NCBI GenBank assembly: GCA_017427645.1 | Contig: JAFRSI010000141.1 | Span: 6,395 to 70,394 of the forward strand | DNA: 64,000 nucleotides | From: Oscillospiraceae bacterium | GTDB taxonomy: Bacteria; Bacillota; Clostridia; Oscillospirales; Oscillospiraceae | Direction of reading: 5' to 3' | Translations under genes and position numbers: made by a program | Shown here: piece after piece, positions 50,313 to 61,930 of the stretch | Numbering within the stretch: position 1 is the stretch's first letter | How the letters are laid out: each line of letters starts with the position of its first letter | The notes under the pieces: generated by a model | Told to the model about the DNA's origin: nothing | Database searches by the model: none | What the model saw: the letters and a program-made list of their open reading frames with translations, nothing else

Positions 50313-51710
50313 TCATACCGTTTTGATGAAATAGAAAAAGATCTCGTCCTGGCCGCTGCGCCGCATGCAGGAGGACAGCATCCGGAAGGACGCCTGATTC
50401 TCCTTATAGCACTTTGCCACCACCCGGTCCAGCCCCAGGCGGTACAGGGCCCACTCCGCCGCCGCGGCAAAGGCCTCGGTGCCGTAACCGTGGCCGGCGT
50501 ATGCCGGCGCGATCCGGCAGCCCAGCTCCGCACCGCCCCGCCAGTCCAGATTGTAGAGCACCGCCTCGCCGATCAGCCGCCCCTCCAGGCGGACCGCGAA
50601 ATTGACAGCCAGCCGGTCGTCAAAATCGCGGCGGGCCACCTCCAGGAAGTAGTCCTCCGTCCATTCCCCCTGCAGATCCTCCCGGTAGTCGTAGCCCCAC
50701 CAGCGGTTGCGCTCATCATCCAGGCACAGGGCGTTGTAGGCGGCCTTGTCGTCCTCCGTCAGTTCGTCCAGCACCAGGCGCTCCGTTTTCAGTGCGGGGA
50801 CGGCGTCCAGATCGTCCAACTCGCTGCCCACGGCAAAGTGGATCTTGCTGCCCAGCTCCGCCGGCAGATACTGGAGCTTGGAGGTGCGAAGCCCCTTGTC
50901 CTGGGCGTCGTCCTCCCGGTTGATCCACCGGCACTCCGCCCCGAAACGGGCGGCAAAGGCCTGCACCAGCGTGGGATAGGCGCCGGGGCAGGAGTAGAGG
51001 GCCTTCTCGGCGTGGATCACAAGGGTGTCCCCGCATTTCTCCGCCAGGCAGAGGGCCAGCAGGCGCCCCTCGTCCTCCAGACCGCCGGCGCAGAACCAGC
51101 CCCGGTCCAGCAGACGGAACATGCCCTTGGCGGTTTCCAGCTCCCACAGAGCCATGGGGCTGGTCTTCTGGAACTCCACCTCGTACCGGCGCCAGAACGC
51201 CTCGATCCGGTCGGCATCCGCCATCGTCAGCTCCGTGAAGCGGGCCTGGGGATACAGCTTCCTGAATTTGTTGATATGGTTTCGCTGGCCGCTGTAGCGT
51301 CGCCCGGCAAAAGCCGCCATGTCGGCGGCGCGGTAGAGATAGTCTCTCCATATCCGCTCGTTGGTGATCGTCACCCGGGAATACCGGCTGCACAGCCGCG
51401 CCGTCTGCTCCGCGGGCACCACCCAGATCTCGGGGTGCATCCCCTTTTTGGTGCAGTATTCCTCAATGGCGGTCAGCGCCGCGTCCACGTCTCCGTTTTC
51501 CCCCGGCACCGGCATGTCAAAGAAGATCCCCTCCTCCACCCGGTTCAGGACCACCAGACAGCCGGCCACCTCGGCAAAAGACGACTTCAGATGGTCGTCC
51601 CACATCACCTTGGTGCCCACGGCGTACTCGCACAGGCGATAATTGCAGTTTTCATAGTACGGCTTCAAACGGCCCGCGTTCTCCGCCGTGATCGGTTCAA
51701 ATGTCAGCAT
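50313..51710 (-). CDS. DUF2156 (aminoacyltransferase-like) domain fused to a RimJ/RimL-type GNAT
   Basis: DYLY..GRRYSGQRNHINKF, HAEKA, INREDD..GLRTSKLQY; C-terminal TERLVL..GHGYGTEA..ENQAS. Confidence 0.8.
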   Translation of the reverse strand: MLTFEPITAENAGRLKPYYENCNYRLCEYAVGTKVMWDDHLKSSFAEVAGCLVVLNRVEEGIFFDMPVPGENGDVDAALTAIEEYCTKKGMHPEIWVVPAEQTARLCSRYSRVTITNERIWRDYLYRAADMAAFAGRRYSGQRNHINKFRKLYPQARFTELTMADADRIEAFWRRYEVEFQKTSPMALWELETAKGMFRLLDRGWFCAGGLEDEGRLLALCLAEKCGDTLVIHAEKALYSCPGAYPTLVQAFAARFGAECRWINREDDAQDKGLRTSKLQYLPAELGSKIHFAVGSELDDLDAVPALKTERLVLDELTEDDKAAYNALCLDDERNRWWGYDYREDLQGEWTEDYFLEVARRDFDDRLAVNFAVRLEGRLIGEAVLYNLDWRGGAELGCRIAPAYAGHGYGTEAFAAAAEWALYRLGLDRVVAKCYKENQASFRMLSSCMRRSGQDEIFFYFIKTV

Positions 51711-51780
51711 AGGCGTTTTCCCTCTGAAATGAAAAGAGAAACGCCGGCCGGGCGGCCGGCATTTCTCTCGTTGCCATATT

Positions 51781-52155
51781 TCAATTGCAGTGCTTCTGCC
51801 AGAAGGCGCGGAGCTTTTCATAGGTCTCCTCGCTCAAGTGATGCTCGATCAGGCAAGCGTCGTGCTCCGCCGTCTCGGCGCTGACGCCCAGGGCGCAGAA
51901 CAGCTCCGTCAGCATATGGTGCTTGTCCAGGGTGCTTTGGGCAATGGCAAGGCCCTTCTCCGTCAGCACCAGCTGGCCGTCGGAGAGGCGCTCCAGGCAG
52001 CCGCTGTCCACCAGCTTGCCTACCGCCACGCTGACGCTGGGCTTGGAAAAACCCAGATGGGTCGCCACGTCGATGCTGCGGCAGCTCCCCTTGGCCTCCC
52101 GGATCATCAGGATCGCCTCCAGATAGTCCTCGCTGGAACGGTGACCGTCCGCCAT
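51781..52155 (-). CDS. DtxR/MntR-family metal-dependent regulator
   Basis: SEDYLEAI, SKPSVS, LGVSAETAEHDACLIEH. Confidence 0.9.
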   Translation of the reverse strand: MADGHRSSEDYLEAILMIREAKGSCRSIDVATHLGFSKPSVSVAVGKLVDSGCLERLSDGQLVLTEKGLAIAQSTLDKHHMLTELFCALGVSAETAEHDACLIEHHLSEETYEKLRAFWQKHCN

Positions 52156-52329: not shown

Positions 52330-55143
52330 TCACTGCATGGTCGGATACTCCGACTTTCCGGTGATCTTTTTCTTGAGGATCTTCATGCCGCGCTTGATGG
52401 CATAGGGCTTGACCACGTCCATCATCTCCTCAGCGGTGTGCATCTCGCTGGCCTCGGGGATATCGCGGGACAGGTGGATGGCGTCGAACTGGCAGCGGGT
52501 GGTACACAGGCCGCAGCCGATGCACTGGTTCAGGTCCACCGTGGTGGCGCCGCACTTGAGGCATCGGTTGGCCTCCACCTTCACCTGCTCCTCCGTCAGC
52601 GGCAGGCGCAGGTCCTCGAAGGTGGCCGCCGCCTCGCCGGGCTTCATGCCGGGCATCTGGCGCTTGGCATTGTCGTAGCTCTCCACCAGGATGTCGTCCC
52701 GATCCAGCTCGATGAAGTTCCTCAGGTCACGGCCCAGGGTCAGGGACTGACCGGGATGCACGAAGCGGTTGATGGACACGGCGGCCTCGCGGCCGGCGGC
52801 AATGGCGTCGATGACGAACTTCTGGCCGGTGCAGACGTCGCCGCCCACGAAGATGTCCGGCTCCGCCGTCTGGAGCGTGACCGGGTCGGCCTTGACGGTG
52901 CCGTTGCGGTTGAACTCCACCCGGGTGCCCTCCAGCAGCTTGCCCAGATCGGGCTTCTGGCCGATGCAGTAGAGCACGGTGGTGCAGGCGGCCTCGGCGG
53001 TATCGCCGTCGTCGAACTTCGGGTCGAAGCGGCCCTCGGCATTCTTGACGGACAGGCACTTGCGGAAGCGGATCCCGGTGCACCTGCCGTCCGCCGTCAG
53101 GATCTCCGTCTGGCCCCAGCCGGCGTGGATGGCGATGCCGTCCGCCTCCACCTCGGCCCGGTCGTCGGGCCCCATGGGCATCTCGTCGTAGCTCTCCAGG
53201 CAGTAGAGGTCCACCTTGGCGGCCCCTGCCCGGACGGCGGTCCGGGCGATGTCCGCGGCGATATTTCCGCCGCCGATCACCACCACGCTGCCGCTGAGCT
53301 TCTTCTCCGGGTGCTGGGTGATCTCACGGGAGAAGGTGATGCCGGGGATCACGCCCTGGGCGTCGTCGCCGGGGATCCCCAGCCTGCCGCCGCTCTGCAG
53401 GCCGGCAGCCAGGAAAAACGCCTTGTAGCCCTGGGCGCGCAGCTGATCCAGGGTCACGTCCCTGCCCACGTCGACGCCGCAGCGGAACTCCACGCCCATC
53501 CGGCGGATGATGTCGATCTCGCCCTCGATGACCTTCTTCTCCAGGCGGAAGTTGGGGATGCCGTTCATCATCATGCCGCCGGGGCGCTGCTCCCGGTCAA
53601 ACACCGTGACGGGGTAGCCCTCCTGCCGCAGATAGTAGGCGGCGCTCAGGCCGGCGGGGCCGGCGCCGATGACGGCGATCGGGAAATCGTCCCACTGCTT
53701 GCCGTCCATGTTCTCGCAGACGGGAACGTAGTCGGCGGGGTGCTGCAGCTCCCACTGGGCCAGGAACTTCTTGATCTCGTCGATTGCCACGGGCGCGTCG
53801 ATGGTGCCGCGGGTGCAGCGGTCCTCGCAGCGGCGGTTGCAGATGGCGCCGCAGACGGCCGGGAAGGGGTTGTCCTGCCGGATCAGGCGGATCGCCTCGT
53901 CGTAGCGGCCCTCGGCGGCCATGCGGATATAGCCCTGTACCGCCAGATGGGCGGGACAGGCGGTTTTGCACGGAGACGTGCCCGTATCGTAGCAGTTGAT
54001 CTTGTTGTGATCCCGGTAGTCCGGGTCCCAGCGATCCTCGCCCCACACGTTGTCGTCCGGCAGATCGTGCATGGGGTACATCACCTTGGAGCCGTCCGCC
54101 CGGCAGAGCTTCTGGCCCAGCTTGGCGGCGCCGGAGGGACAGACCTCCACGCATTTGCCGCAGGCCACGCACTTGGTGGCGTCCACGTGGGCGCGGTAGG
54201 CGGAGCGGGACATGTTGGGCGTGTTGAACAGCTGGGAGGTCCGCAGGCCGTAGCAGCTGCCGGGAGAGCAGTTGCAGATTCCCACGATGCGGTCCGGGCC
54301 GTCCAGGTTGGTGATCTGGTGGACGTAGCCCTTGCGCTCGGCCCGCTCAATGATCTCCATGGCCTCCTCGCGGGTGATGTAGTGGGCGTCCTTGCCGGAC
54401 TCCACCAGAAACTCGGCGATATCGCCCACGCCGATGCACATGTAGCCCTCGATATCGCCCACACCCTCGCCGCGGATGCGCTGGGCCTTGCGGCAGGCGC
54501 AGACCATGGTGCAGAACTTGTCGTTCTTCTGCAGCCAGTGGCTCAGATGCTCCACGCTGACCGACTGGGAGGCTCCGTCGATGGCCTGCTCCACGGGGAT
54601 CACGTGCATGCCGATGCCGGCGCCCCCGGGAGGCACCAGCTTGGCAGCCAGCTCCAGGGGCTCCTGGGGTGCCAGGTTGAACATGGTGGCCACCTCGGGA
54701 TGCTCGTCGGCCAGGGTGGGATGCTCCACCATGTATTCGCCGGAGCCCACCACCCACTTGGGGATCCAGTACTGGATGTGCTGATCCGGGTTGTCCCGGT
54801 TCTGCTCCAGGATACCGATCCACAGCAGGTGGTCGATGACCTTCTGCGCCTCCTCCACGCTCATCTGATTGCGCTCCGCCAGCTCCGGGGTGGTGAGCCC
54901 GAAACGGCGCTTCCTGAAGCTGAGCATGAAGCGGACTTCATCCTTGGTCAGCAGCTGGTCCAGGATCCAGAAATCCATGTGGTTTTCCTTCATGCCGCCG
55001 GGCAGCTTGCGGGGAATGTTGTCCGTGATCATGCGGGCCAGCTTCATCACCAGCTTTTTCTTTTCCGGATCGCTGCAGCGGTGATCCGTCACGGGATAGT
55101 CCCGCTGGTTCACGTGTATTCTGGGATTGACTTCCTTTACCAT
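52330..55143 (-). CDS. Multi-Fe-S, FAD/NAD(P)-binding oxidoreductase (GltD-like core with ferredoxin domains)
   Basis: CxCR..C..CNC..C; CVACGKCVEVCP; CKTACP..CGAICNRRCEDRC; GAGPAG; GGGNIAAD; C-terminal CLKC..CIGCGLCTTRC. Confidence 0.88.
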   Translation of the reverse strand: MVKEVNPRIHVNQRDYPVTDHRCSDPEKKKLVMKLARMITDNIPRKLPGGMKENHMDFWILDQLLTKDEVRFMLSFRKRRFGLTTPELAERNQMSVEEAQKVIDHLLWIGILEQNRDNPDQHIQYWIPKWVVGSGEYMVEHPTLADEHPEVATMFNLAPQEPLELAAKLVPPGGAGIGMHVIPVEQAIDGASQSVSVEHLSHWLQKNDKFCTMVCACRKAQRIRGEGVGDIEGYMCIGVGDIAEFLVESGKDAHYITREEAMEIIERAERKGYVHQITNLDGPDRIVGICNCSPGSCYGLRTSQLFNTPNMSRSAYRAHVDATKCVACGKCVEVCPSGAAKLGQKLCRADGSKVMYPMHDLPDDNVWGEDRWDPDYRDHNKINCYDTGTSPCKTACPAHLAVQGYIRMAAEGRYDEAIRLIRQDNPFPAVCGAICNRRCEDRCTRGTIDAPVAIDEIKKFLAQWELQHPADYVPVCENMDGKQWDDFPIAVIGAGPAGLSAAYYLRQEGYPVTVFDREQRPGGMMMNGIPNFRLEKKVIEGEIDIIRRMGVEFRCGVDVGRDVTLDQLRAQGYKAFFLAAGLQSGGRLGIPGDDAQGVIPGITFSREITQHPEKKLSGSVVVIGGGNIAADIARTAVRAGAAKVDLYCLESYDEMPMGPDDRAEVEADGIAIHAGWGQTEILTADGRCTGIRFRKCLSVKNAEGRFDPKFDDGDTAEAACTTVLYCIGQKPDLGKLLEGTRVEFNRNGTVKADPVTLQTAEPDIFVGGDVCTGQKFVIDAIAAGREAAVSINRFVHPGQSLTLGRDLRNFIELDRDDILVESYDNAKRQMPGMKPGEAAATFEDLRLPLTEEQVKVEANRCLKCGATTVDLNQCIGCGLCTTRCQFDAIHLSRDIPEASEMHTAEEMMDVVKPYAIKRGMKILKKKITGKSEYPTMQ

Positions 55144-55178: not shown

Positions 55179-56363
55179 TCACATGATGGGGATCTTGATC
55201 CTGACGTCGCTGGTGGGATAGGCGGCGCAGGCGTGGACGTAGCCGAAGTCGCGGTCCGCGCCCCGGCGGCCGTCGTTCTCCGGGCAGATATAGACGCTGC
55301 CGGAGAGGACCTTGGTGCGGCAGAAGCCGCATTCGCCGCTGCGGCAGCCGGTTTCGATGCGGATGCCGGCCCGCTCCAGGGCCACCACCAGGCTCTCCGT
55401 GGCCTTGGCGGGGATCACGTCCTCGCGGAGACCGCGGACAACGGTGAGCTGATAGGTCCGATCCCGGCACTCCATGGGATAGCCGGGGAAGGTGGTGATA
55501 TCCTTGGCCTGGCCGAACACCTCGAAGCGCACGCGGCGCTTGGGAATATCCAGCTTGGCCAGCTCCCCGTGGAGGAAGCGGTACATCACCTGGGGGCCGC
55601 AGATAAAGTAGGTGGTGTCCGGCGCGGAATACTTCCGGATCAGCTCCGCTGTCAGGAAGCCCCTTTCGCCCTGCCAGTCCGGCTCGTCGCCGGAGAGGAC
55701 GTGGACCACGCGGACGTGCTCGCCCTCCAGGGCGGCCAGCTCCTCCTTCAGCGTGATGTCGTCGGAGGACACGGAGCCGTAGAGGATGGTCAGATCCATG
55801 TCCAGCGTGCCGTGGGCTACCTCCCGGGCCATGGAGGCGAAGGGCGTGATGCCCACGCCGCCGGCCAGGGCCACCACGTGCTTTGCGTCGCGCAGGGGCT
55901 CGTAGTAGAACTGGCCGCAGCCGATCAAGCCGCGGAAGGTGTCGCCCACCTTCACGTTGTCGTTGATGTGGTCGCAGATAAAGCCGTCGCCCTTGGAGCG
56001 GCGGACCGTGATCTCCACAAAGCCCTTCTCCTGCCGGGCCTGCCAGGGCGCCGAGGAGATGGAGTAGGGTCGGGAGATCAGGCTCTGGCCAATGGGGAAG
56101 TCCAGCACCATGAACTGACCGGCGTAGAAGGGGGGCAGCTTTCCGCCGCCGACCTTTTCAAAGCGGACGGTCTTGGCGGTCCTGGAGGCGTCGCGGATCT
56201 CCGTCACCACCAGGTCCAGCTTGCCGGGATGCCACTCTCTGGCTACGTCGGCGATGGGGTCCTCCCGGACCGGCGCGGGAGAAGCGGCTGCAAACGCGTG
56301 GAGACGCGCCTTGGTGACGCGGGAGGCGCCTCCTACGTCCTTCAAAAAGCCGTTTACTTTCAT
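55179..56363 (-). CDS. FNR-type FAD/NAD-binding reductase with C-terminal 2Fe-2S ferredoxin
   Basis: RPYSISS, AGGVGITPF, ICGP, FEVF, CRSGECGFC..C; 4-bp overlap with upstream gene. Confidence 0.88.
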   Translation of the reverse strand: MKVNGFLKDVGGASRVTKARLHAFAAASPAPVREDPIADVAREWHPGKLDLVVTEIRDASRTAKTVRFEKVGGGKLPPFYAGQFMVLDFPIGQSLISRPYSISSAPWQARQEKGFVEITVRRSKGDGFICDHINDNVKVGDTFRGLIGCGQFYYEPLRDAKHVVALAGGVGITPFASMAREVAHGTLDMDLTILYGSVSSDDITLKEELAALEGEHVRVVHVLSGDEPDWQGERGFLTAELIRKYSAPDTTYFICGPQVMYRFLHGELAKLDIPKRRVRFEVFGQAKDITTFPGYPMECRDRTYQLTVVRGLREDVIPAKATESLVVALERAGIRIETGCRSGECGFCRTKVLSGSVYICPENDGRRGADRDFGYVHACAAYPTSDVRIKIPIM

Positions 56364-57889
56364 TTCGCCGCCTCCTTTGCCATGGTATCCAGCACATTTT
56401 TCGCCGCCTTGCGGCCGTTGACCACCGCCGGGCCCATACCGTCGCCGCTGATCTGGTGGGCGCCGGAGAACTCCAGATGGCCGATGAACTTCTCCTCCTC
56501 TTCCGTCTGCAGACGGGCAACGATGTGGTCCTCCATGGTGTGGGCATAGCCGTAGATGCAGCCGTTCCACATGCCGGTATAGCGGGCCACGGTCATGGGC
56601 GTCTCGATCACGATCTCCAGTATGTGATCCAGCAGATTCACGCCGAAGTAGGCGCTCATATCGTCGATGAGCTGCTTGGCCACCTGATGCTTCACGCGGT
56701 CATACTCGTCGGCGGTAACGGTCTTCCAGCCGTCCACGCGCGGCAGAACGGTGATGGAGAAGGAGCAGGTCCCCGCGGGGGTGGCGTCGGGATTGCCGTA
56801 GTTGTGGCAGATACAGGTGAGATAGCTGTACGGACCCAGGCCCTTCAGCTCATCGTAAATCCTGTCGGTATCCATCGTGGTGCCGTGGAAGATGCTGTAA
56901 TCCTTGATGTTCAGCTCCTCGGCGCTCTTGTCCAGGATCAGGATGACAGAGAATGCCGTCAGACTGATGCGGCGGCCGTTGACCATCTTGATGGCCCCGG
57001 CGGGCACCGCCTCAGCCGGCTCGATCATGGAGGTGTAGACCTTGTTGGGGTAGGCCGAGCAGATCACGTAGTCGGCGTAGATCTCGTCGCCCCGGGCGGT
57101 GCGGACGCCGTAAGCCTTGCCGTCCTTCACCAGGATCTTGTCCACGTGCTGCCGGTACTCGATCTGTACGCCCATCTCCTCGGCCTTTTCCGCCATCTTC
57201 AGGCTCATCTCATGGCTGAACTTCCGGGGGATATAGGAGCCGTTGCCGATATACTCGCCCATCAGCACGGCGTAGATGGTGAAGGGCAGATCGTTGAAGC
57301 CGCTGCCCACGTAGATCCAGTAGGGGGCCAGCAGATCCAGGGCCTTCTGCGGCAGGTCGAAGGTGTCCAGCACCTCTTTGGTGCTGTAACCGGCGGTCTT
57401 GACAAAGGCCGGGTGCTTGAGCAGCATCTGGGGCTTGCTCAGGTGGTTGACGGACAGATAGTTGACGCTGTCATACACGGTGGCGCACAGGTCCATCAGA
57501 CGCTTGACCTTCTCGTACGTGCCGGGCACGGCGGCGTCGATCTCGCGGGAGAAAGTCTCCATGCCCGGGTGCAGCGTCACCTCCAGGCCGGGGAGACTGG
57601 CATGGTACGCCTCCGGTACCCGGAGCCAGTCGATGTCGATGCCCAGCTGGTCGAAAAATACGCCCACCTTCTGCCGGTTGTCCTTGGCGCCGATATACAT
57701 CATTTCGTGGAGGGCCGCTTCGATCTCGATGCCGCCGCGCACGAAAGAGGTGGCCACGCCGCCGGGCAGATTGTGACGCTCCAGCACCAGCACGTCCTTG
57801 CCCTTGTCCGCCAGCTGCAGCGCCGCCGAAAGGCCCGCCAGCGCGCCGCCCACCACGATGACGTCATAGTGGTCTTTGTAAAATTTCAT
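56360..57889 (-). CDS. CrtI/phytoene desaturase-retinol saturase family FAD oxidoreductase
   Basis: VGGALAGL..VLERHNLPGG..SFVRGG..EAALH; ETPMTVARYT..NGCIYG; GDGM..VNGRKAA. Confidence 0.85.
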   Translation of the reverse strand: MKFYKDHYDVIVVGGALAGLSAALQLADKGKDVLVLERHNLPGGVATSFVRGGIEIEAALHEMMYIGAKDNRQKVGVFFDQLGIDIDWLRVPEAYHASLPGLEVTLHPGMETFSREIDAAVPGTYEKVKRLMDLCATVYDSVNYLSVNHLSKPQMLLKHPAFVKTAGYSTKEVLDTFDLPQKALDLLAPYWIYVGSGFNDLPFTIYAVLMGEYIGNGSYIPRKFSHEMSLKMAEKAEEMGVQIEYRQHVDKILVKDGKAYGVRTARGDEIYADYVICSAYPNKVYTSMIEPAEAVPAGAIKMVNGRRISLTAFSVILILDKSAEELNIKDYSIFHGTTMDTDRIYDELKGLGPYSYLTCICHNYGNPDATPAGTCSFSITVLPRVDGWKTVTADEYDRVKHQVAKQLIDDMSAYFGVNLLDHILEIVIETPMTVARYTGMWNGCIYGYAHTMEDHIVARLQTEEEEKFIGHLEFSGAHQISGDGMGPAVVNGRKAAKNVLDTMAKEAAK

Positions 57890-57911
57890 AGGCAATTATC
57901 CTTTCCGAAAA

Positions 57912-57936
57912 ACGGGGGCGGTTGTCCCGCCCCCGT
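57912..57936 (-). terminator. Hairpin with U-tract between the isomerase and the CrtI-like gene
   Basis: Minus strand acgggggcgg-gacaa-ccgcccccg-ttttt. Confidence 0.6.
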
Positions 57937-57947
57937 CTCTGCAAGTC

Positions 57948-59336
57948 TTAGAAGAAGCGATCCACCAGCTCGCGGGAGTACTCGGCCGTCTCGTCCATGT
58001 CGCCGAAGGACATGATCTCGCCGGCATAATAGGTGTCGTACTTGCCCTGCATGGCCTCCACCTTGTCATACCAGCCGGCGGCATAGTCGTCGGAGAAGAC
58101 GTGGGGGAAGTAATACACGGACCACTCGTTGATGACCTCTCTGGCGGGGTTCTTCATGATCTTCAGATCGTCCTGCACCATCTGGCGGCACTCCTCGTAG
58201 GGGATCTCCCTGGAGTTCTTGTGCTTGCGCAGGGCGTAGGTGGTGATGACCTGGTCGATCTGATCCTTCCAGCGGCGATAGTAGACCATCAGGTGGCCCA
58301 GCTTCTCGGGCACCATGTTGTCAAACACGTAGTAGGAGATCTCGGGGTGATCCTCGGGTCTGGTTAGCACGGCCTGGACGTCATAGCGCTCGTAGTCGAT
58401 CTTGGAGAACAGCGCCTTTTCGTCCTCGCGGGCGTCGAAGTAGTCCACCATGCCCTTCTGGCCGTCGGCCCGGGTGCCGGGGATATACAGCGGCGCGGTG
58501 ACGATGATCTTGTCATACTCCTCCACCTGGCCGTTGACGGTGACGTAGACCTTGCCGTCCCGGCGCTCCACCTTCTCGATGGTGCTGCCCAGGCGGGCGG
58601 GATTCTTCAGATGGGCGTTGAGCTGCTCCCAGATGTACTGGGTGCCCTCCTTCCAGGTCCAGAGATTGACCTTCACGAAGTTCATGCAGGTCTGATAGTC
58701 CAGATACTTCACCACGTAGCCGGCGGGGATCTCGTCGAAGTAGCCGTAGCCAAAAGAGGTAAAGGGCCCGATCCAGATCTTCTGCACCAGGGGCACGCCG
58801 TTCATCTCGCAGAACTGCTTGAAGGGCATGGCCAGATCCTTCAGGTTGGGGTTGACGCCCTCCACCTTCTCGCGGCCGGGGGTGACGGCATAGCCCTCGT
58901 AGCGGCCTTCGGCAACGCCGCGGTGGCCGTTGATGTCGTAGCCCTTGTACTTGGTCTCCAGCAGCTCGCCGAACTTCTTGAGCTGGCTCTTCATCTTCAG
59001 CATCCAGGGATTCTTGATGATGTTGCCGATGGTGCGGGCAAAGGGCTCAATGACCTCGCCCTTGGCGTTCTTGTAATTGCGGTTCAGCTTGGGACCGTCG
59101 TGGGTGATGCCGCAGAAATCCTCCACGTCCTTGACGGCGTAGTAGCTGGGCACGCCCATGATGGCGCCCATCTCATAGCGCCGCCCGTTGTAATGGGGGG
59201 ACCAGCACTTGCCGCCCACGCGATCCTGGCGCTCCAGGATGGTGTAGTTCTCATAGCCCTTCTGCTCCAGATACATACCGGCGGAAAGACCGGCGGGGCC
59301 GCCGCCCACGATGCAGATGCGAATGTTCTTGTCCAT
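57948..59336 (-). CDS. Polyunsaturated fatty acid isomerase (PAI-type linoleate 10,12-isomerase) homologue
   Basis: Blocks shared with C. acnes PAI as recalled: GPAGL.AGMYLEQ, YTILER, VGGKC.SP, GRRYEMGAIMGVPSY, DGPKL.R, PFT.FGYG.FD, LGH.MVYY.RW, EECRQMV.DD, YYFPHV, GWY.KVE.MQG, YAGEIMSFG; RBS ggagg. Confidence 0.88.
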   Translation of the reverse strand: MDKNIRICIVGGGPAGLSAGMYLEQKGYENYTILERQDRVGGKCWSPHYNGRRYEMGAIMGVPSYYAVKDVEDFCGITHDGPKLNRNYKNAKGEVIEPFARTIGNIIKNPWMLKMKSQLKKFGELLETKYKGYDINGHRGVAEGRYEGYAVTPGREKVEGVNPNLKDLAMPFKQFCEMNGVPLVQKIWIGPFTSFGYGYFDEIPAGYVVKYLDYQTCMNFVKVNLWTWKEGTQYIWEQLNAHLKNPARLGSTIEKVERRDGKVYVTVNGQVEEYDKIIVTAPLYIPGTRADGQKGMVDYFDAREDEKALFSKIDYERYDVQAVLTRPEDHPEISYYVFDNMVPEKLGHLMVYYRRWKDQIDQVITTYALRKHKNSREIPYEECRQMVQDDLKIMKNPAREVINEWSVYYFPHVFSDDYAAGWYDKVEAMQGKYDTYYAGEIMSFGDMDETAEYSRELVDRFF

Positions 59337-59393
59337 GTTCAGCCTCCATATCATTATTCCGTATTCGGTATTGAAACCGCAATCGTGTAGTAT

Positions 59394-59422
59394 ATTATAT
59401 CGCCGTTTTCGTTTAAATTCAA
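59394..59422 (-). promoter_or_regulatory. Promoter of the isomerase operon
   Basis: TTGAAT-17-TATAAT. Confidence 0.7.
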
Positions 59423-59471
59423 CAGACAATTATCGATTATAAACATTTTCATGCAATTTGAAAGAGAAATC

Positions 59472-59500
59472 TTTATTTTATATGACGAATATGGTATACT
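59472..59500 (+). promoter_or_regulatory. Divergent promoter of the ligase-ACP-thioesterase operon
   Basis: TTTATT-17-TATACT with extended TG. Confidence 0.6.
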
Positions 59501-59522
59501 GCCCGCAGGGAGGTGCGTTTGT

Positions 59523-60863
59523 ATGCGATTTGACGGCTTCCGGCATCTGCTGGCCCACTGGGCGGAGCGTCAGCCGGACGCACCGGCGCTGCGCTTCGGC
59601 GCCCAAAGCTGCTCTTTCGGGGAGCTTCTGCACCGGGTCGAGCAGCGCTCGGCTCAGCTGCGGGCAGAGGGGAATACCTGCATGGGGATCCTCTCCGACG
59701 GCAGCCTGGACTGCGTGATCGAGATCTTTGCGGCCAACGCCGCCGGACTGCAGGCGGTGCTGCTGGACGAGCAGCTCCCCGAGGACGTGCTGCGGGGGCT
59801 GATCCGGTATGCCGACATCGACCGACTGTGGGGCGACGAGGACCTGGTGCAGGAATTGACGCCCGCCCTGACCGGCGGCACGGCCGACGGCGCGGGAAAG
59901 CTCCTGTTCTTCACCTCCGGCACCACGGAGCAGTCCAAGGCCGTGGTCCTGACGGATCACAGCCTGTGCCAGAGCGCCTGGAACGGCTCCCAGATGCTGC
60001 CCCTCTCCCGGGAGGACACGCTGCTTTGCCTGCTGCCTCTGGGCCACGTATTCGGCTTCGTGTGCGGCCTTCTGTGGGGTCTCTCCAACGGGGCCTGCGT
60101 CGCCCTGGGCCGCGGCGTGCGCCACTATTTTGACGACTGCGCCTTCTACTCCCCCACGGCGGTTTCCGTGGTGCCCCTGCTGCTGGAGCACCTTTTGCGC
60201 GCCGATGCCCTGGGGCCCACTCTGCGGACGGTCCTGGTAGGCGCCGGCGACTGCCCCGCCCCCCTGCTGGCCGCCGCTGCGGCCCGGGGCCTGCGGATCA
60301 GCTTCGGCTACGGCCTCACGGAGACCAGCTCCGGTGTGGCCATCAGCACGGGCGGCGATCCCTTTGCCATGGATATCTGCCCCGACGACACCGTCACCCT
60401 GGCCCCGGACGGCGAGATCCTGATTGAAGCGCCCACCTGCATGATGCAGGGCTACTACAAGCGCCCGGACGCCACCGCTGCCGTGCTGCAGGACGGCGTT
60501 CTGCACACGGGGGATCTGGGCCGGTTCGACCAGGAGGGGCGGCTCCATATCCTGGGCCGCAAGAAGGACGTCCTGGTGCTGCCGGACGGCACGAAGCTCT
60601 ATCTCCCCGAATATGAAAGCGAAATCGCGGAGGCCCTGGGGATCCGCGACCTGGCCGTCACCCTCCGCAGCGGACGGCCCATCCTCCTGCTGCACGGCGA
60701 GATCAGCCCCGCCGAGGCAGTGCAAAAGCTGCGCCCCCTCATGGCGCGGCGCCCCCGCGGACAGCAGCTGACGGACGTCCTGGTGACGAATCAGCCTCTG
60801 CCCCGTACGGCTACCGGAAAGATCAAACGCTGGGAACTCCAGCAGAAAGTGAGTGTGCTATGA
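59523..60863 (+). CDS. AMP-binding (ANL) long-chain acyl ligase
   Basis: FTSGTT..SK, GYGLTET, HTGDLG, GRKKD, LPRTATGKIKR; RBS ggaggtg. Confidence 0.9.
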   Translation: MRFDGFRHLLAHWAERQPDAPALRFGAQSCSFGELLHRVEQRSAQLRAEGNTCMGILSDGSLDCVIEIFAANAAGLQAVLLDEQLPEDVLRGLIRYADIDRLWGDEDLVQELTPALTGGTADGAGKLLFFTSGTTEQSKAVVLTDHSLCQSAWNGSQMLPLSREDTLLCLLPLGHVFGFVCGLLWGLSNGACVALGRGVRHYFDDCAFYSPTAVSVVPLLLEHLLRADALGPTLRTVLVGAGDCPAPLLAAAAARGLRISFGYGLTETSSGVAISTGGDPFAMDICPDDTVTLAPDGEILIEAPTCMMQGYYKRPDATAAVLQDGVLHTGDLGRFDQEGRLHILGRKKDVLVLPDGTKLYLPEYESEIAEALGIRDLAVTLRSGRPILLLHGEISPAEAVQKLRPLMARRPRGQQLTDVLVTNQPLPRTATGKIKRWELQQKVSVL

Positions 60864-61108
60864 AAAGAGAAGAGATCCTGGAAAAGACCCGCAAGATTAT
60901 CTACGACTGCTTCCCCGAGTTGGCGGACGCGGAGCTGCGGGAGGACACGGTGATCAATACGGATACCGGTATCGACTCCATGGGCTTCGTGCTCATCATC
61001 TGCAAGCTGGAGGCCCTGTTCAACGTGCGGATCCCGGAGCGGCAGTGGAAGAAGCTCTCCACCCTGGGCGACGTGGTGGACGCCATCTCCAACCGTCTGT
61101 CCAAATGA
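60860..61108 (+). CDS. Acyl carrier protein
   Basis: 82 aa; GIDSM phosphopantetheine site; ATGA overlap with the ligase. Confidence 0.9.
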   Translation: MKREEILEKTRKIIYDCFPELADAELREDTVINTDTGIDSMGFVLIICKLEALFNVRIPERQWKKLSTLGDVVDAISNRLSK

Positions 61109-61824
61109 GTATTTATCAGAAGGAGCTGCGCCTGCGCAGCTCGGACGTGGATCTCCACCGGCGATTGCGCCTGTCCACCCTGTTCGCCCTGCTCCAGGAG
61201 GCCGCCATCGCCCACACGGAGCAGTTGGGGATGGGCCGGGCCATGACCCTGGACCGCGGCGCCCTGTGGATCGTAACGCTGCAGTCGGCGCAGATCCGGC
61301 GCATGCCGGAATATGACGAGGAGATCGTGCTCCGCTCCTGGCCGGGACAGACCATGCACGTTCTGTTTCCCCGCTACTGCGCCGTTGATACGGCCTGCGG
61401 CGAGCCGCTGATCCGCGCCAGCGCCCTGTGGACGCTGATCGACGGCGACACCCGGAAGCTGGTTTTCCCGGAGCGGCTGGGGGTGGAGATCCAGGGCGTC
61501 TCCCGCCCGGAGGACGAGATCCCCCTGCCCTCTGCCCCGCGGCCCATCCCGACCACGCAGCACCGGGAGTTCACCGTGCCCTACAGCTACGTGGATCTCA
61601 ACGGCCACATGAACAACACCCGTTACTTCGACCTGGCGGAGGACTGCATCAGCGCCGCAGCGGAGGGACGGCCTCTGCGCGCCGTCAGCACGGAATTCAA
61701 ACAGGAGGCCCGCCTGGGCGAGACCCTCTCCCTGGCGTGGGGCCGGGACGGCGAGCGCTGGTATCTGGCCGGCGCCGCAGAGAAGAACGTCTTCCGCATG
61801 AGTCTCACCTACGGCGAGGGCTGA
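61105..61824 (+). CDS. Acyl-ACP thioesterase (FatA/FatB-like double hot-dog)
   Basis: SDVD..LQEAA.AH, DLNGHMNNTRY; ATGA overlap with ACP. Confidence 0.9.
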   Translation: MSIYQKELRLRSSDVDLHRRLRLSTLFALLQEAAIAHTEQLGMGRAMTLDRGALWIVTLQSAQIRRMPEYDEEIVLRSWPGQTMHVLFPRYCAVDTACGEPLIRASALWTLIDGDTRKLVFPERLGVEIQGVSRPEDEIPLPSAPRPIPTTQHREFTVPYSYVDLNGHMNNTRYFDLAEDCISAAAEGRPLRAVSTEFKQEARLGETLSLAWGRDGERWYLAGAAEKNVFRMSLTYGEG

Positions 61825-61881: not shown

Positions 61882-61912
61882 GCCCCGCAGCCGATACGGC
61901 TGCGGGGCGTTT
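61882..61912. terminator. Bidirectional terminator
   Basis: gccccgcagccg-ata-cggctgcggggc followed by gtttt. Confidence 0.75.
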
Positions 61913-61930
61913 TGCAGACGTTTTGTTGTT

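Follow-up and report, generated by a model that had tools for sequence, protein, structure and literature searches.

What use can a bacterium make of an acyl ligase, an acyl carrier protein (ACP) and an acyl-ACP thioesterase that are encoded together with no synthase beside them? This question is raised by a stretch of 64,000 nucleotides from an Oscillospiraceae bacterium (assembly GCA_017427645.1; the whole stretch is called the window in what follows), which carries such a triad at positions 59523-61824. The window has a GC content of 63% and lies on contig C127 of a 2.03-Mb metagenome-assembled genome (MAG) of 79.5% completeness. We found that the triad is a translationally coupled unit for loading, carrying and releasing an acyl chain, and that it is physically tied to genes for a homologue of the polyunsaturated fatty acid isomerase PAI and for a CrtI-like enzyme paired with an FNR-type flavoprotein. 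Its linkage, in uncultured rumen bacteria, to a relative of the trans-10 linoleic acid isomerase suggests, without proving it, that dietary polyunsaturated fatty acids (PUFA) are hydrogenated on a private carrier.

The three genes lie on the forward strand and encode an ANL-family carboxylic acid ligase, for which we propose the function of a fatty acid:ACP ligase (59523-60863; 446 aa; PF00501, E 1.3e-37), a dedicated ACP (60860-61108; 82 aa; PF00550, with Ser40 in a DSMG motif) and a FatA/B-type acyl-ACP thioesterase (61105-61824; 239 aa; PF01643 and PF20791). The junctions between ligase and ACP (...gctATGAaaag...) and between ACP and thioesterase (...ccaaATGAgtat...) are both ATGA overlaps and, since the 4-bp overlap was the commonest spacing at either junction in about 77 related loci (44 for ligase-ACP and 48 for ACP-thioesterase), they are not ascribed to chance. 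The ligase start has a GGGAGG ribosome-binding site 9 nt 5' of the ATG at 59523, and homologue lengths of 443-447 aa match it; for these two reasons a longer open reading frame from 59451 was dropped. An AT-rich intergenic region of 186 bp (59337-59522), in which sigma-70-like hexamer pairs were found on both strands (three observed versus 0.6 expected), is common to the ligase operon and to a divergent operon on the reverse strand. The latter begins with the PAI-type isomerase homologue (57948-59336; E 2.1e-135 to the Cutibacterium acnes PAI structure 2B9W) and continues with a CrtI/CrtISO-family FAD enzyme that is a candidate double-bond reductase (56360-57895; PF01593, with TIGR02730 and TIGR02734 both below their cut-offs) and with an FNR-type flavoprotein carrying a C-terminal 2Fe-2S domain, its likely electron donor (55179-56363; PF00970, PF00175 and PF00111), whose ATG overlaps the stop codon of the CrtI-like gene, again as ATGA. 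An earlier note made from the DNA letters had described three ATGA-coupled genes at 59523-61824 with no synthase. Gene calls, Pfam domains and both junctions bear out the coupling, and the lack of a synthase holds assembly-wide: the only two PP-binding matches of the whole MAG are the triad ACP and the housekeeping acpP, and no convincing ketosynthase was found in it, the sole ketoacyl-synthase signal being a 20-bit match. The MAG encodes one AcpS-type phosphopantetheinyl transferase, so that no extra enzyme of this kind is needed by the genome.

Two samples of related loci were compared with the window. One consisted of the best 80 loci from species-representative genomes, retrieved with a 47-member alignment of the ligase subfamily, and the other of 80 metagenome loci picked solely by PAI similarity; all counts use as denominator only the loci with room for the gene or genes asked about. 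Seen from the ligase, a divergent PAI gene lay upstream in 68 of 72 genome loci; genes for the ACP and the thioesterase came after the ligase gene in 73 of 76, and the complete set of six core genes was found in 37 of 40. Seen from PAI, the ligase was adjacent in every one of 71 metagenome loci, and these also contained the full triad (57/58) and the CrtI-like gene (66/66). The exceptions include locus L061, where the triad stands apart from PAI, yet a PAI of 81% identity is encoded on another contig of that genome, locus L055, where the triad is present and PAI was not detected, and three loci with a lone ligase. The linkage was kept on a contig of 36% GC at identities of 59% for PAI, 59% for the CrtI-like protein, 38% for the ligase and 46% for the ACP. 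Since the genes flanking the cluster vary among loci, the six genes travel as a unit. A lack of linkage to the isomerase in related genomes had been set beforehand in the earlier note as a refuting result; it did not occur, and the linkage proved near-complete from the ligase side and from the PAI side.

Among the 80 genome records, at least 50 name rumen or ruminant-gut MAGs, and the host families comprise Oscillospiraceae/Ruminococcaceae, Lachnospiraceae, Erysipelotrichaceae, Anaerovoracaceae and Coriobacteriaceae. A search for the ligase at E<=1e-30 gave no match in 100 other genomes of the host's own family, and PAI was found in only 2 of 401 genomes of its order, from which it follows that the cluster is sporadic and accessory and not lineage-wide; it is also missing from a genome of the same genus. 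We thus see it as an accessory element that moves horizontally and bears a strong mark of the rumen. The Coriobacteriaceae, which belong to the Actinomycetota, are represented by rumen MAGs with the complete core (L100) or with the ligase only (L099 and L102), the PAI of the cluster being 81% identical to that of the window; these copies point to cross-phylum transfer within the rumen. Rumen MAGs are known to hold PAI homologues, and one such MAG was correlated with conjugated linoleic acid (CLA) of the trans-10,cis-12 type in milk (PMC10019597).

We then considered what each product of the triad is predicted to do. The ligase contains the core motifs of the ANL adenylate-forming superfamily (A3 TSGTTxxxK, A5 GYGxTE, A7 TGD, A8 GRxKD and A10 PxxxxGK), with residues S132, G133, T134, Y263, G264, T266, E267, D331, R346, K358, G432 and K433 invariant or nearly so in 47 subfamily members, and its AlphaFold2 model (pLDDT 93.7) has the two-domain fold, with a TM score of 0.81 to 3CW9, so that both motifs and fold place it in that superfamily. 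Fatty acyl-AMP ligases are marked by an insertion in the N-terminal domain that blocks the CoA-thioester conformation; the window protein has only 446 aa, and its model stands in a thioester-forming-like pose, 3CW9 being also its best TM match. In ANL enzymes, an A4 motif of the LPLGHVFG form with a His is found in acyl and aryl acid ligases, whereas the Asp of the FDxS form (the equivalent of PheA Asp235) binds the alpha-amino group of amino acids. The window ligase has LPLGHVFG with an invariant His175 and no Asp235-type residue, and is therefore predicted to be of the carboxylic-acid type and not of the amino-acid type. A reading as an amino-acid adenylation or DltA-like D-alanylation enzyme was rejected on the basis of this A4 motif and of the absence of dltB and dltD. 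At 50% identity the subfamily falls into about 100 clusters, and the next relatives outside it are the A domains of megasynthases. Two of its members, P0177 (950 aa) and P0239 (909 aa), are fusions of the ligase with a PP-binding domain and a PlsC-type acyltransferase, a layout like that of Aas with a built-in carrier. We regard these fusions as direct architectural evidence that enzymes of this subfamily would load carriers with lipid acyl groups. For transfer of the acyl-adenylate to holo-ACP and not to CoA, the fusions give indirect support, together with the 4-bp overlap of the ligase and ACP genes and the kinship with megasynthase A domains.

The ACP matches PF00550 with 27.5 bits against a cut-off of 20.8, which places it in the ACP family, and Asp39-Ser40 is invariant in 31 orthologues. 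It shares only 29% identity with the housekeeping AcpP of the same MAG, encoded beside plsX (C142:59028-60379), and differs from it in net charge (-2 and pI 5.1 versus -18 and pI 4.05) and in the number of acidic residues in helix II (two versus seven). By charge and identity it thus falls outside the housekeeping AcpP of the type that serves fatty acid synthase (FAS). Acidic helix II is what the FAS, PlsX and PlsC partners of AcpP recognise and, given its non-acidic helix II and its low identity to AcpP, the triad ACP looks insulated from membrane lipid synthesis. The thioesterase scores above the cut-offs of both PF01643 and PF20791, as expected for the FatA/B family, and has 2OWN, 2ESS, 4GAK and 5X04 as structural relatives. 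In the double hotdog FatB enzymes, such as UcFatB, the catalytic set consists of Asp-x-Asn-x-His and a downstream Glu. In the thioesterase of the triad, the residues D164, N166, H168 and E201 show no variation and line up with the DxNxHVNN...E of those four structures, and it is accordingly predicted to be a working hydrolase.

The PAI homologue aligns end to end with 2B9W at about 58% identity and keeps the equivalents of Met62, Arg88 and Phe193; relative to that structure, the rumen PAI clade shows three insertions of approximately 5, 22 and 10 residues. With such an isomerase at one end and the thioesterase at the other, a reaction order can be proposed. PAI would isomerise linoleic or linolenic acid, as free acids, into a trans-10,cis-12 conjugated product, which the ligase would then adenylate and attach to the phosphopantetheine arm of the triad's ACP. 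The CrtI-like flavoenzyme, receiving electrons from the FNR-2Fe2S protein, would reduce one double bond of the ACP-bound chain, and the FatA/B-type thioesterase, if selective for the reduced product, would hydrolyse the monoene off and free the carrier. The identities of the genes, their intact catalytic motifs, the coupling of the triad and its linkage to the PAI, CrtI-like and FNR genes are observed; what we infer in this scheme is the substrate, the ACP rather than CoA as the acceptor, which reaction the tethered chain undergoes and whether that redox reaction is a reduction. A loader that uses ATP and a hydrolytic releaser in one operon would amount to a futile cycle, so that the released chain presumably differs from the loaded one; we think that this argument, already made in the earlier note, is the best single one for modification of a tethered chain. 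The linkage seen from both sides, the non-acidic ACP unlike AcpP, the carboxylic-acid type of the ligase and the intact catalytic set of the thioesterase also speak for it. As to the direction, thermodynamics would be expected to favour reduction over desaturation, given that the host is a strict anaerobe and the donor is of the NAD(P)H type. That the triad is a private system to load, carry and release a long-chain fatty acid, with reduction taking place while the chain is tethered, falls in our estimation only just short of an even chance. The complete version, by which ruminal trans-10 biohydrogenation takes place on the private carrier, the ligase picking the CLA made by PAI, a CrtI-family saturase fed by the FNR-2Fe2S protein reducing the acyl-ACP and the thioesterase freeing trans-10 18:1, is put forward tentatively, as a possibility against which we would sooner bet than for it.

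Several observations weigh against reduction on the carrier, and part of them concerns the isomerase. Arg88 and Phe193 of the C. acnes enzyme are the residues that bind the free carboxylate. Since they are kept in the window homologue and since C. acnes PAI is reported to act on free fatty acids only (PMC5442254), isomerisation is probably on the free acid, and this step would probably be off the carrier, contrary to a strict version in which the whole pathway is tethered. In addition, a thioester gives no chemical activation at the C10 to C13 double bonds, so tethering would serve only for handling or recognition. The ligase itself is silent on the substrate: Foldseek with the predicted model returned generic ANL matches only (MenE and 4-chlorobenzoate, benzoate and feruloyl-CoA ligases), and the fold comparison thus gives no substrate call. 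A search of longer proteins containing the ACP disclosed only one of 162 aa and no fusion to a flavoenzyme, ligase or thioesterase, a weak point in the same direction.

The history of the cluster and the company kept by the triad elsewhere are further points of this kind. In the trees, PAI, ligase, ACP and thioesterase of the window group with loci L008, L010, L024, L030, L031 and others, whereas the CrtI-like and FNR genes fall among other loci altogether (L015/G286, L052, L053, L062, L064 and others). These are two supported clades without any common member, and the switch is at or near the boundary between PAI and the CrtI-like gene (cluster at 55179-61824). In approximately unbiased (AU) tests, the CrtI data rejected the PAI/triad grouping (p 3.6e-50) and the ligase data rejected the CrtI/FNR grouping (p 0.028), p values that are optimistic because the tested groups were named after the trees had been seen. 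The carrier half and the reductase half hence appear to be swappable between lineages about 56% identical and, with a mosaic cluster of this kind, tight co-adaptation of ACP and reductase is not required, docking of the two being still compatible. Distant triads, with ligase identities of 31-43%, were found outside the PAI cluster. One stands with two Abhydrolase_3 lipases or esterases (L107:79-4309) and another with a phosphopantetheinyl transferase, a DUF7005 protein and a PAP2 phosphatase (L020:10001-14449), neither of them having an isomerase or a CrtI-like gene; adjoining PAI and CrtI-like genes are also lacking in L055 and L061. A phosphopantetheinyl transferase is placed beside the triad in some relatives. 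The triad is older and more widely spread than the PAI cluster and, since it occurs without isomerase or CrtI-like gene, load-then-release is a more general unit for handling fatty acids. Consequently, the biohydrogenation on an ACP proposed in the earlier note stands only in part: the tie of the triad to PAI, CrtI-like and FNR genes is upheld, and the tethering is weakened by the free-acid residues of PAI and by triads that do without these flavoenzymes.

If the modification does not take place on the carrier, the triad could serve in trafficking or buffering, with both flavoenzymes using the free acid, the ligase and ACP capturing a toxic PUFA or a conjugated intermediate (vectorial acylation or sequestration) and the thioesterase freeing it for the next enzyme or for export. 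The carboxylate-binding residues kept in PAI, the self-standing triads beside lipases or lipid phosphatases and the exchangeability of triad and reductase half all agree with this explanation. It would, however, spend two ATP equivalents per fatty acid with no chemical gain in a genome that already has four DegV/FakB fatty-acid binders, and it leaves unexplained why, in more than 130 loci, the triad is a near-obligate neighbour of PAI and of a CrtI-like gene. We therefore consider it rather unlikely, though a serious candidate. The fatty-acid supply of the hosts raises another explanation. FabZ/FabA (PF07977) was not found in the MAG or in the relatives G088, G286, G489, G494 and G495 (of which two are 98-100% complete), FabD was found in only one of these six genomes and not in the MAG, and FabF was not found in the MAG beyond the 20-bit match mentioned above. 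Because these genes were not found while plsX-acpP, AcpS and four DegV/FakB genes are present, the hosts, which are rumen Clostridia, look like fatty-acid auxotrophs that would build their membranes from dietary fatty acids. In such a non-synthesising host, the ligase and ACP could pass the product of hydrogenation, or some other fatty acid taken up from outside, to the acyltransferases that make phospholipid, with the thioesterase editing unsuitable chains. The PlsC-type fusions P0177 and P0239 fit with membrane-lipid salvage of this kind, as do the gaps in the fab set and the genes retained. Nevertheless, PlsX and PlsC-type partners read an acidic helix II, which is absent from this ACP, no acyltransferase was seen in the cluster among the loci examined, the standard FakB/PlsX/AcpP route is already there and a genome of the same genus lives without the cluster, so that we judge this explanation improbable.

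It could also be argued that the likeness to biohydrogenation is misleading and that the cluster converts another carboxylic acid, either aromatic, isoprenoid or medium-chain. By sequence and by fold, the ligase is best matched by MenE and aryl-CoA ligases (4-chlorobenzoate, benzoate, ferulate), and CrtI-family enzymes mostly act on isoprenoids, both of which would fit such a non-C18 substrate. Against it, the identity of PAI to a linoleate isomerase extends from end to end with the substrate-contact residues kept, the thioesterase is of the fatty acyl-ACP family, in relatives the genes nearby encode enzymes of lipids (DegV, lipases, PAP2 and PlsC fusions) and the hosts are mostly rumen organisms. 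On this evidence we hold a non-C18 substrate to be very improbable.

Reduction of a long-chain fatty acid tethered to the private carrier can be compared with several known systems. In JamA/JamB/JamC, a dedicated ACP is loaded by a ligase and a distal double bond of the fatty acid is tailored while tethered (bioRxiv 10.1101/291195; PMC8341276), a precedent for the kind of tethered tailoring proposed here. As in JamABC and TtuABC of cyanobacteria and proteobacteria, an ANL ligase and a stand-alone dedicated ACP are clustered with redox enzymes. Nevertheless, JamABC uses a membrane di-iron desaturase or acetylenase, is oxidative, acts on C6 to C10 acids and delivers its product to a polyketide synthase or a nonribosomal peptide synthetase, whereas the cluster described here has soluble PAI-type and CrtI-type flavoenzymes with an FNR-2Fe2S donor, occurs in strict anaerobes and has no synthase, a FatA/B thioesterase ending the cycle. 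AasS of Vibrio harveyi and Aas of Escherichia coli, the latter fused to a PlsC-type acyltransferase, load exogenous fatty acids at the expense of ATP on the housekeeping AcpP for phospholipids, and have no partner thioesterase. The fusions P0177 and P0239 resemble Aas in this respect, but the window ligase is only distantly related to AasS and Aas and has its own non-acidic ACP. In the caffeate reduction of Acetobacterium woodii (CarA/CarB/CarCDE), the thioester with CoA chemically activates the double bond at the alpha,beta position, and recycling is the work of a CoA transferase. The order of activation, reduction and release, the use of a C=C bond of an unsaturated acid as electron sink of an anaerobe and the flavin and Fe-S modules are common to that pathway and to the one proposed here, which differs in having a carrier protein in place of CoA and a thioesterase in place of the CoA transferase. 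DltA/DltC also consists of a small ANL ligase adjoining a small carrier with a DSMG serine motif; in contrast to it, the window ligase is without the amino-binding Asp, DltB and DltD are both missing, and the carrier is followed by a fatty acyl-ACP thioesterase. C. acnes PAI is known as a stand-alone enzyme, and rumen PAI is essentially always flanked by the triad and the CrtI-like/FNR pair. Finally, according to the account of Kishino 2013 given in PMC10019597, the CLA-HY/DH/DC/ER enzymes of Lactobacillus plantarum saturate linoleic acid as free acids via hydroxy and oxo intermediates. This is likewise a multi-enzyme bacterial saturation of linoleic acid, but its enzymes belong to unrelated families and no carrier protein figures in that account.

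The genes of ruminal biohydrogenation are undefined beyond a few isomerases, and it is likewise unclear which organisms cause the trans-10 shift by which milk fat is depressed (PMC13464031, PMC7339423, PMC10019597). In our literature search, we met with no description of a ligase-ACP-thioesterase unit next to PAI, of a carrier-dependent step of biohydrogenation or of the reductase genes. We propose that the triad represents carrier-dependent tailoring of fatty acids within a reductive pathway of bulk lipids, in which a thioesterase takes the closing place of a synthase. If this were true, it would be the first carrier-protein-dependent catabolic or detoxifying pathway of fatty-acid saturation and would put a name to the long-sought reductase system. 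Assays with free fatty acids would have missed such a reductase, which would explain decades of failed purification, and carrier-dependent tailoring of distal double bonds would extend from secondary metabolism to the bulk transformation of lipids in the gut. Should the tethering not be real, gut Bacillota that are apparently without fatty-acid synthesis of their own would still have in the triad a widespread, undescribed unit for handling fatty acids. In either case, three small soluble proteins turn a vague candidate cluster into a scheme that can be tested at the bench.

Some additional features were noted in the window and in related loci. A consensus scan placed a terminator-like hairpin 3' of the thioesterase gene (61900-61926, forward strand). 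In locus L008 (12374-15119), the thioesterase gene is followed by genes for an SDR protein and an OYE/FadH-like flavoenzyme, which were seen in L008 and L060 and in no other of the 160 loci; lacking recurrence beyond that lineage, they were rejected as core members, and it is possible that the pair is a second reductase route in some hosts. Locus L022 (1-7147; GC 36%) has a gene for a CrtO-like (PF18927) membrane acyltransferase and another of 128 aa inserted between the PAI-like and CrtI-like genes. On the reverse strand of the window, the FNR gene is followed by one for a GltD/NfnB-like Fe-S flavoprotein (52330-55143; 937 aa; PF14691 and PF07992), an accessory member that is near the cluster only in a minority of related loci. 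Just past it, a gene on the same strand (50313-51821) encodes a 502-aa protein that combines an LPG_synthase_C domain, of the lysyl-phosphatidylglycerol synthase C-terminal type, with a GNAT acetyltransferase and may represent another lipid-modifying function.

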